Shown here piece by piece: positions 13,576 through 62,760 of a DNA stretch of 64,000 nucleotides. Origin of the DNA: Leucoraja ocellata (taxonomy: Eukaryota); the NCBI GenBank assembly GCA_036785375.1, contig JAWMAR010000146.1:1-64000 (forward strand), written 5' to 3'. Both the position numbers and the translations under genes were made by a program. Under the pieces are notes generated by a model that searched no databases, was not told the DNA's origin, and saw nothing but the letters and a program-made list of their open reading frames with translations. Numbering within the stretch: position 1 is the first letter of the stretch; each line of letters starts with the position of its first letter.

Positions 13576-14244
13576 GCCTTTATAACAAGAGGAATCAAAT
13601 ATAGCCTTTATAACAAGAGGAATCGAATATAGGAGCAAAGAAGTCTTTCTGCAGTTGTACAGAGCCCCAGTGAGACCACACCTGGAGTATTGTGTGCAGT
13701 TTTAGTCCCCTAATTTGAAGAAGGACATTCTTGCTATTGAGGGTGCAGCATAGGTCTACAAGGTTAATTCCTGGGATTGTCATATGCTGAGAGAATGGAG
13801 CAGCTGGGCTTGTACACTCTGGAGTTTAGAAGGATGAGAGGGTATCTCATTGAAACATATAAGATTGTTATGGGTTTGGACACGCTAGAGGCAGGAAACA
13901 TGTTCCCGATGTTGGGGGAGTCCAGAACCAGGGGCCACAGAACATTAAGAATAAGGAGTAAGCCATTTAGAACGTAGATGAGGAAACACTTTTTCTCACA
14001 GAGAGTGGTGAGTCTGTGGAATTCTCTGCCTCAGAGGGCGGTGGGGGCAGGTTCTCTGGATGCTTTCAAGAAAGAACTAGATAGGGTTCTTAAAAATAGC
14101 GGAGTCAGGGGATATGGGCAGAAGGCAGGAACGGGGTACTGATTGGGGATGATCAGCCATGATCGCATTGAATGGCGCTGCTGTCTAGAAGGACCGAAAG
14201 GCCTACTCCTGCACCTATTGTCTATTGTCTATTGTCTATTGTCT
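13576..14244 (+). mobile_element. CR1 3' fragment with (CTATTGT)n tail
   Basis: SYAERMEQLGLYTLEFRRMRG; 21-bp duplication gcctttataacaagaggaatc at the 5' junction. Confidence 0.92.
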
Positions 14245-14264
14245 AAACAATAGGGATCAAGGTT

Positions 14265-14415
14265 CTTCTTCTTCTTCTTCTTCTTGCGTATAGGCAAGCA
14301 CAGCGTAAAGTTGTAGGACAACTTGTTCTATTTGATCTTATTTGATTGTGCACGCCAGGTTGATTGCATTCGCCGAAACAGGGCAGACCACGTGAAGGTT
14401 GCAATCTTCCACCCC
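14265..14415 (-). mobile_element. Short non-autonomous retroelement (RTE-type (GAA)n tail) headed by an HDV-like ribozyme
   Basis: Perfect 12-bp TSD gggatcaaggtt (14253-14264, 14416-14427); (AAG)7 tail; no pol III A/B boxes. Confidence 0.9.
14362..14415 (-). ncRNA. Minimal HDV-like (delta) self-cleaving ribozyme
   Basis: GGGGUGG AA GAUUGCA ACC UUCACGU GGU CUGCCCU GUUUCGG CGAA UGCAAUC: P1 7 bp with G1-U wobble, P2 7/7, P3 3 bp, canonical 7-nt L3, P1.1 C-G, UUCG mini-P4, J4/2 CGAA. Confidence 0.85.
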
Positions 14416-15224
14416 GGGATCAAGGTTAATCATTGAGCAACACCCGAGATATTATTAAAAGTTCCTCGAGAGAGTTGCAAGGGTTGGGGTCTGATTGTAC
14501 GGTGTCACAATCAGGATAGGGATCATTTCAAGGGATGGTTTGATCATGAGGCAGTGCTATGTGGAAGTCTGTGGAAATCTGTGATAATCAGTCTGAGAAA
14601 CAGACAAGTATTCTGGAGCAAGGTGTGGGGTAAACGTTTTGTATGACTGTTGTGGATTTTACTCGATAGCCTCTTGTAATAGGGGAAACATCCCTGCTCT
14701 TTCTGGCCCTGAAGTAATGCAGTAAATGCCTTCACATTTGATATACCATGAAATAGGAATAAAAACAAACTCACTGTTAATCCCACCCTCTTCACTTAAA
14801 ATTATTCCCTGCTCTCATCCTGCTCTCATTAAATAGGGAACTGGACTGCAACAAGTTGAATTCTGTTTCTGTGTTTCCAACACTGATCTGATCCCAATTT
14901 TCCCTTTTTTGGTGAGTCAAGAATCAGTCTTTAATATATAATAGCTGGATAAATATTGAGACGTTTCTATTAATATAAGAGTTGCCACATAGTTACAAGA
15001 TAAGGAGGTGTCCATTGAAAACCAGGATGCAGAAGATGGTGACATTCTCTGTCCTGGAGAGTCACAGTACCAAGACCATTGAGGGCATTTAAAGTTGAAG
15101 TGGTAAATTCCAATGCATTGTAATGTAAGAGGTTGCAGAGAGTATGATCTCAGCCTCACGTGCCTCAAGAAGATGTTAACTATCATTAACTATCATCAAG
15201 GATCCCCTCCATCTGGGTCATGAA

Positions 15225-61885: not shown

Positions 61886-62177
61886 TAAAAAAACACGGCC
61901 ACAGCTCACGTGATAAGGTAAATAAAAGTGCATGGACTAGCTGATTTTTGTGTTTGAAACAATGCTACATAACTTCTCCCAGCAGGGCAGTATTTTTTGT
62001 GGAATTTTGGGAACATTTGACTATAATGTTTGACCTTAAAATTCATGTTTTTGTATGAAATATTCACAATGAATTCATGTGTGTTGCAGGGTTTGCAGCT
62101 GATGGGACACATGGGACAGCAATAGCTAGGACAGCCACAGATGGGACTGATGAGACCACCCGAACAGGACTCTTCAT

Positions 62178-62760
62178 AGAGCGGCCAGCTCTATGAAGTG
62201 TCCCGATGGTTCCAAAGTTCTGCCATTTAAGAATGACGGAGGCCACTGTGCTCTTCGGGACCTGCAATGCTGCAGAAATTGTTTTATACCCTTCTCCAGA
62301 TTTGTGTCATGACACAATCCTGTCTCGGAGGTCTACGGACAATTCCTTCGTCTTCATGACGTGGTTTTTGCTCCAACATGCACTGTCAACTGTGAGACCT
62401 TATATAAACAGGTGTGTGCCTTTCCAAATCATGTCCAATCAATTTAATTTACCACTGGTGAACTCCAATCAAGTTGTAGAAACATCTCAAGGACAATCAA
62501 TGGAAACAGGATGAACCTAAGCTCAATTGTGAGTGTCATAGCAAAGGGTCTGAATACGTATGTAAATGTGATATTTCAGTTATTTCTTTTTAATTACTTT
62601 GCAAAAAATTCTAAACATCTGTTTTTGCTTCTTCATTCTGCGGTATTGTGTGTAGATTGATGATTTAAAAAAAATGAATTTAATCCATTCTAAAATAAGG
62701 CTGTAACGTTTGCAAAATGTGGAAAAAGTGAAGGAGTCTGAATACTTTCTGAATGCACTG
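62178..62760 (-). mobile_element. Tc1 (IR/DR-type) transposon 5' fragment with transposase N-terminus
   Basis: TA plus cagtgcattcagaaagtattcagac TIR with an inner gtattcagaccc direct repeat. ATG 62357: MKTKELSVDLRDRIVS*HKSGEGYKTISAALQVPKSTVASVILKW..FGT...RAGR. Confidence 0.92.

Follow-up and report, generated by a model that had tools for sequence, protein, structure and literature searches.

A short two-ended derivative of a probable Vingi LINE with a predicted P4-less HDV-like ribozyme at its head

In the 64-kb stretch of DNA that we analysed (the window), a 151-nt retroelement lies on the minus strand at positions 14265-14415. In our view it is probably a short non-coding derivative that retains just the two termini of a LINE of 3.1 kb, itself likely a member of the Vingi clade, and the first 54 nt of the element are predicted to form an HDV-like ribozyme that lacks P4 and would cut directly before nucleotide G1. 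The parts of the element are collected in Table 1.

The element and its ribozyme-like head

The element is bracketed by an exact target-site duplication that abuts G1 (offset 0). The first-pass annotation of this DNA had described a minus-strand element with a perfect 12-bp duplication, a (AAG)7 tail and a first base set directly against the duplication, and all of these are present as described. We searched 117 of the 172 open frames of at least 75 aa in the window and found no host gene among them; the sole match was a transposase fragment, at 62067-62306 on the minus strand, which is the helix-turn-helix part of a Sleeping Beauty-type enzyme (PF25787, E 6.5e-15). Adjoining the element, at 13800-14250 on the plus strand, is a LINE 3' end with a tandem 7-nt tail that has very high depth in all four sequencing runs, and which we take to be CR1-like.

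Table 1. Parts of the element and its flanks, in window coordinates
Feature	Position	Strand	Remarks
Target-site duplication, copy 5' of the element	14416..14427	-	12-bp exact match, ends directly before G1
P4-less HDV-like ribozyme (predicted)	14362..14415	-	element nt 1-54
P1	14415-14409 with 14386-14380	-	element nt 1-7/30-36
P2	14406-14400 with 14368-14362	-	element nt 10-16/48-54
P3	14399-14397 with 14389-14387	-	element nt 17-19/27-29
L3	14396-14390	-	UUCACGU
Loop at the P4 position	14377-14373	-	5 nt
G1	14415	-	predicted cleavage site; observed 5' boundary of the family
C44	14372	-	predicted catalytic cytosine, first base of J4/2
Rest of the segment from the partner LINE 5' UTR	14336..14361	-	nt 55 to ~80; aligns to the 5' end of L313
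Junction region	14322..14335	-	~14 nt, including a short tandem duplication; stands for ~2.9 kb of LINE; boundaries approximate
Segment from the LINE 3' end	14286..14321	-	final codons of the ORF, the region around its stop and the 3' UTR as far as the CATACG-type motif at the end
(AAG)7 tail	14265..14285	-	
Target-site duplication, copy 3' of the tail	14253..14264	-	

The head fits the nested double pseudoknot of HDV-like ribozymes, with P1, P2, P3, L3 and P1.1, the last being a single C22-G37 pair as read from the sequence. J1/2 is 2 nt long, P2 consists of seven Watson-Crick pairs, G37-U38 follow P1, and J4/2 is CGAA, with C44 first and the conserved positions A46 and A47 present. A strict HDV descriptor run over both strands of the window gave one match, at the element head, which bears out the earlier proposal of an HDV-like fold of nt 1-54 with the C75 equivalent at 14372. 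Two details of that proposal required revision. The G1-U wobble in P1 (1-36) is there, but it is joined by two more (5-32 and 6-31), which leaves four Watson-Crick pairs in the P1 of this copy; and the vestigial P4 with a UUCG cap is not a stem, since G43 is nearly private to this copy (68 of the 69 copies sampled have A there), so that the region between G37-U38 and C44 is better described as a loop. Against Rfam, the head matches two HDV-like families, both far below their gathering thresholds: CPEB3 (RF00622) with 13.5 bits and E 0.22 (threshold 35 bits), and HDV-F-prausnitzii with 16.7 bits and E 0.23 (threshold 44 bits). By score, the head is thus outside both of these specific families. 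Pseudoknot-free folding of the element is unremarkable (z 0.78), a measure that is uninformative on the pseudoknot. Base pairing is possible in this particular copy between the flank upstream of the element and the 5' strand of P1, which may slow the predicted cleavage.

A dispersed family and the LINE that shares its ends

A 21-mer covering nt 10-30 has 8,200 exact matches in the 3.44-Gb assembly, and its reversed control has none; because the assembly holds duplicated regions, the figure is not a clean copy number. We fetched 83 copies from the first 100 listed places, all on one contig and with most of a tandem array skipped, and reduced them by flank to 69, a sample that is selected for an exact nt 10-30 and in which two or more duplicate pairs persist. 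Of the 69 copies, 59 have G at position 1, and the nucleotide preceding it varies. We detected a duplication in 42: it stops at G1 in 25 of these, reaches one base into the element (where the G is ambiguous) in eight and ends elsewhere in nine; the remaining 27 gave none. The duplications vary in length, from about 8 to 15 bp, and the tail is a simple repeat. These counts uphold the dispersed family with target-site duplications and 5' ends fixed at G1 that had been proposed from the single copy. A pattern search found no recurring foreign sequence upstream of the element, and no empty orthologous site was seen among the contig joints listed. All 14 sampled words of the family occur in sequencing runs of seven organisms, and most of the words in an eighth; contigs have many unrelated loose ends at 14415, as listed for three of four runs.

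The median divergence from the column-majority letters is 6.5% (64 copies). C44 is C in 64 of the 69 copies, and 38 of the 69 keep every pair and the core. The common changes of the family relative to the LINE-type head, at positions 8 (unpaired), 31 (G-C to G-U), 32 (U-A to U-G) and 45 (CUAA to CGAA), all fit the fold, and the other variants that reach at least 10% are CpG substitutions at loop positions 41 and 42. After insertion, C44 has decayed at the ordinary CpG rate (5/43, against 8/67 for C41), a measure that gives no indication of selection acting on individual insertions.

Several further observations concern the arrangement and shape of the copies. Between 19261560 and 19431509 of G000:C1, elements cluster at a spacing of ~2 kb, likely as a tandem repeat that carries a copy, and nine consecutively numbered copies (L040-L048) have common flanks, as a copy amplified inside a larger repeat would. 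In typical copies nt 60-69 and 114-123 (window 14293-14356, minus strand) form a 10-bp stem that joins the 5'-derived and 3'-derived parts; one copy, L140, is without almost exactly the region enclosed by this stem, yet has a 12-bp duplication. Pairing between the 5' and 3' ends of the LINE in general was considered and found no support, since shuffled sequences did as well in 53-185 of 200 cases for three partner copies and in 13-103 of 200 for seven relatives.

Judged from its sequence, the element is an internally deleted LINE, and the same genome holds the ~3.1-kb LINE with a single ORF whose two ends it keeps: element nt 1 to ~80 correspond to the LINE 5' end, and nt ~95 to the end correspond to the LINE 3' end. 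A DNA search with the 3' half of the element returned short copies only; the partner was traced with patterns that exclude the short element, by selecting copies preceded by the end of an ORF and walking upstream stepwise. On a first look there were 1,037 candidates for the LINE 3' region, which shares nt 95/100-140 with the element. Two pairs of copies are near full length, L313/L314 and L312/L315, the latter measuring ~2.8 kb and carrying a 330-bp deletion. They open with the head seen in the element and are flanked by duplications of their own, which end at nt 1. The partner ORF begins ~105 nt after G1 and runs straight into an AP endonuclease domain, followed by the reverse transcriptase (RT) and a C-terminal Cys/His motif; there is no ORF1. 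None of the nine long copies that we translated has an intact ORF. The closest intact protein, P0001 (1,019 aa, AP endonuclease and RT), is 71% identical in the RT; no chain closely related to it was found in the PDB. We found no RNase H domain in P0001 or in the C-terminal frame of L235, whereas L392 and L404 do have one.

An RT tree with 32 rows, built without one RTE-like and one CR1-like locus, places the partner in a clade of 23 rows (95/95), with the deep node left open; the clade labels were assigned in this analysis, with no named Vingi or Ingi reference in the tree. At the RT level, P0001 shares 35-37% identity with three Ingi-like rows, of which two were shown to have RNase H, 26-27% with Nimb-like rows and 20-25% with RTE-like rows. 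Elements called Ingi in Ruminski 2011 may include Vingi-type ones. PMC13708176 describes Vingi elements as having a single ORF with AP endonuclease and RT, no RNase H, and a position sister to Ingi, and from its architecture and RT distances the partner likely belongs to the Vingi clade. The first-pass annotation envisaged an autonomous RTE sharing both ends; the partner found does share both ends, but it is a Vingi-like LINE. "SINE" is a loose label for what is an internally deleted LINE whose head does not come from a small RNA.

Other LINE copies came to light during this work. Partner candidates derived from PF14529 were discarded, being two-ORF Nimb/I-like elements with similar AAG tails and no shared ends. 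Three Nimb/I-like copies (L091, L092, L093) end in AAG-type tails and retain uninterrupted ORFs 1,246-1,268 codons long, and their sequences suggest recent activity. Many of the 5'-truncated copies of the partner itself (L184, L233, L248, L255/L261, L268, L281, L155, L095/L096 and L330) carry at the truncation an inverted piece of the LINE 5' head, joined head to head and usually without its first 4-15 nt, so that the extreme 5' end has been captured repeatedly. These joints resemble twin priming as described for L1.

Heads of related LINEs and the origin of the sharp 5' end

Since copies of one family cannot show covariation, we used relatives of the LINE to test the fold. Related proteins are encoded at 75 metagenome loci, and we examined the 30 whose match reaches the N-terminal region. 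The strict descriptor matched six of these 30 loci, none of the reverse strands and none of 300 shuffled sequences; the relaxed descriptor matched nine loci, again no reverse strand, and one of 300 shuffles. Every relaxed match is in sense orientation, 117-384 nt upstream of the protein match; the nine include two identical sequences and three closely related ones. Of the 21 loci with no match, some lack the 5' end and others have heads that look degenerate by eye. With L374 and L390 dropped, seven distinct heads remain, and 11 of their 15 stem pairs occur as more than one Watson-Crick type. We stress that this count is circular, since the descriptor selects for pairing, and that the weight rests on the strand, position and shuffle controls; a MAFFT alignment of the heads, which was out of structural register, was left out of the pair counts. 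The covariation in the stems by which the first-pass annotation proposed to judge the fold is thus seen across the seven heads, within the pairing that the descriptor preselects. One relative, L336, is flanked by a duplication of 11 bp that directly adjoins the G1 of that copy. All 17 LINE-type heads have A32, C44 and U45. Because the P4 region is 14-33 nt long in the relatives with a descriptor match and only 5 nt in the partner LINE and the short element, the loss of P4 is likely derived.

Six of the distant relatives (L336, L359, L387, L394, L401 and L402) end in the same CATACG-type motif before varied microsatellite tails; this 3' motif is likely a recognition signal for the RT. On another related LINE, at L383:3617-3690 and L384:2199-2272, there is an HDV-like head whose P1, P2, P3 and L3 are closely like the Rfam consensus of CPEB3, a resemblance that may be relevant to whether the CPEB3 ribozyme came from a retroelement.

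By analogy with R2, L1Tc and related systems (PMC6765202 and PMC4035085), the most likely route would be that transcription begun in the host sequence or a neighbour reads through a copy of the element, and that predicted self-cleavage releases a unit-length RNA starting at G1. The endonuclease/RT protein of the LINE would then bind, in trans, the 3' end that the element RNA shares with it, and target-primed reverse transcription at a new site would leave a duplication of 8-15 bp abutting G1.

The head can also be read in other ways. A dual promoter and ribozyme, as in Pr77 of L1Tc, would by analogy be the main open alternative: the head would also, or mainly, be an internal RNA polymerase II promoter that drives the element's own transcription, with the role of the ribozyme limited to trimming or protecting the 5' end. 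We regard this as possible, at a probability clearly below that of a ribozyme acting on read-through transcripts. It draws on the sister clade, where the first 77 nt are a promoter in DNA and a ribozyme in RNA (PMC4035085 and PMC3383444), and on the retention by the element of ~80 nt of LINE 5' end, which is more than the 54-nt ribozyme; what speaks against it is that the stems of the relatives differ in sequence yet keep their pairing, which points to a constraint on RNA structure. To call the element promoterless is nonetheless unsafe, because the 5' segment of that sister clade combines both functions (PMC4035085). We judge it unlikely that the fold, having lost P4, is now a relic that has ceased to cleave, in which case the sharp 5' end would reflect a promoter or the template end. 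Such a relic would agree with the 14-33 nt that every relative with a descriptor match keeps at P4, with the three wobbles in P1 of this copy and with the rate of C44 decay in inserted copies, which is that of ordinary CpG sites. Dead copies, however, are expected to decay neutrally once inserted; the 5-nt loop is already present in the heads of the parent LINE, and the element reached thousands of copies with it; the changes at the subfamily level avoid the pairs and C44; and natural P4-less ribozymes cleave in vitro (PMC10879173).

The reading as a classical polymerase III SINE, or as the RTE-mobilised SINE of the first-pass annotation, is in our view highly improbable. RTE-like elements (PF20049) do occur in this genome, at least one of them seems to end in an AAG-type repeat, and RTE elements yield two-ended derivatives and carry such ribozymes (PMC5786205). 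Yet none of 10 RTE-like loci, taken at 3 kb each and covering the 3' parts, shares sequence with the element, and both element ends match a LINE whose closest intact relative has the low RT identity to RTE given above; an RTE-type RT as the partner is therefore not upheld. Nor does the element have a tRNA match: its best A-box has two mismatches and lies downstream of the best B-box, and the head is not derived from tRNA, 5S or 7SL RNA but from the LINE. A two-ended LINE derivative with a P4-less head that is predicted to cleave remains our preferred explanation.

Relation to known systems and significance

Ribozyme-headed derivatives with internal deletions are already known as NARTc, RIME and SIDER, which belong to the L1Tc/ingi clade of trypanosomatids. 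The present element differs from these in its animal host with a ~3.4-Gb genome, in a partner without RNase H, and in a head of 54 nt that has no P4 and whose ribozyme is predicted. Also comparable are the Vingi LINEs and their non-autonomous derivatives (e.g. Vingi-1_EE and Vingi-1_Acar), for which derivation by internal deletion is reported (PMC5786205). R2 SIDEs and the bipartite RTE derivatives Bov-A and RTESINE are likewise two-ended and non-autonomous (PMC5786205 and PMC3414825), but they belong to a different LINE clade, and R2 is site-specific.

As for the ribozyme, the minimal HDV-like forms (drz-Mtgn, theta) resemble our head in having no P4, a short J1/2, the catalytic C first in J4/2 and a similar length, and differ in that ours sits on a retroelement. 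According to PMC10879173, nearly 99% of the reported minimal ribozymes are in Caudoviricetes phages, many of them beside tRNAs, and the eukaryotes screened were human, mouse and protists. The minimal head described here likely has an origin separate from that of the phage forms, by loss of P4 from a LINE head. In the Rfam alignment of the mammalian CPEB3 ribozyme (RF00622), L3, the GU after P1 and the CGAA of J4/2 are identical to those of the element head, but the CPEB3 ribozyme has P4 and occupies a single conserved intronic locus. In the full-text literature as represented by titles and the beginnings of abstracts, a body outside which most subscription papers lie, we found no P4-less HDV ribozyme in a eukaryotic retroelement, no Vingi ribozyme and no description of this element family. 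By that literature, the P4-less head in a eukaryotic retroelement and the HDV heads on Vingi-type LINEs would be new here, and the family itself may already be catalogued in Repbase or Dfam with no ribozyme noted.

In its strongest form, which we put forward only tentatively and think rather doubtful as a whole, the interpretation would be that loss of P4 in a Vingi-type LINE gave rise to an unreported eukaryotic family of minimal HDV-like ribozymes, which a 140-nt derivative has amplified to several thousand intact and active copies in one animal genome; that copies lying sense would cut host pre-mRNAs with sufficient frequency to be selected against; and that HDV heads are general, and overlooked, in Vingi LINEs, including those used for gene writing. 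The HDV-like heads on relatives of the partner would bear on Vingi-based gene-insertion platforms that retain the native 5' UTR (PMC13708176), and they suggest why Vingi-type elements give two-ended derivatives. The family would place a minimal ribozyme in an animal retroelement, with P4-bearing relatives showing its origin. With 38 of the 69 sampled copies intact, thousands of potentially active sites may lie scattered in one genome, and counting them could test whether hosts select against self-cleaving insertions in the sense orientation of introns.
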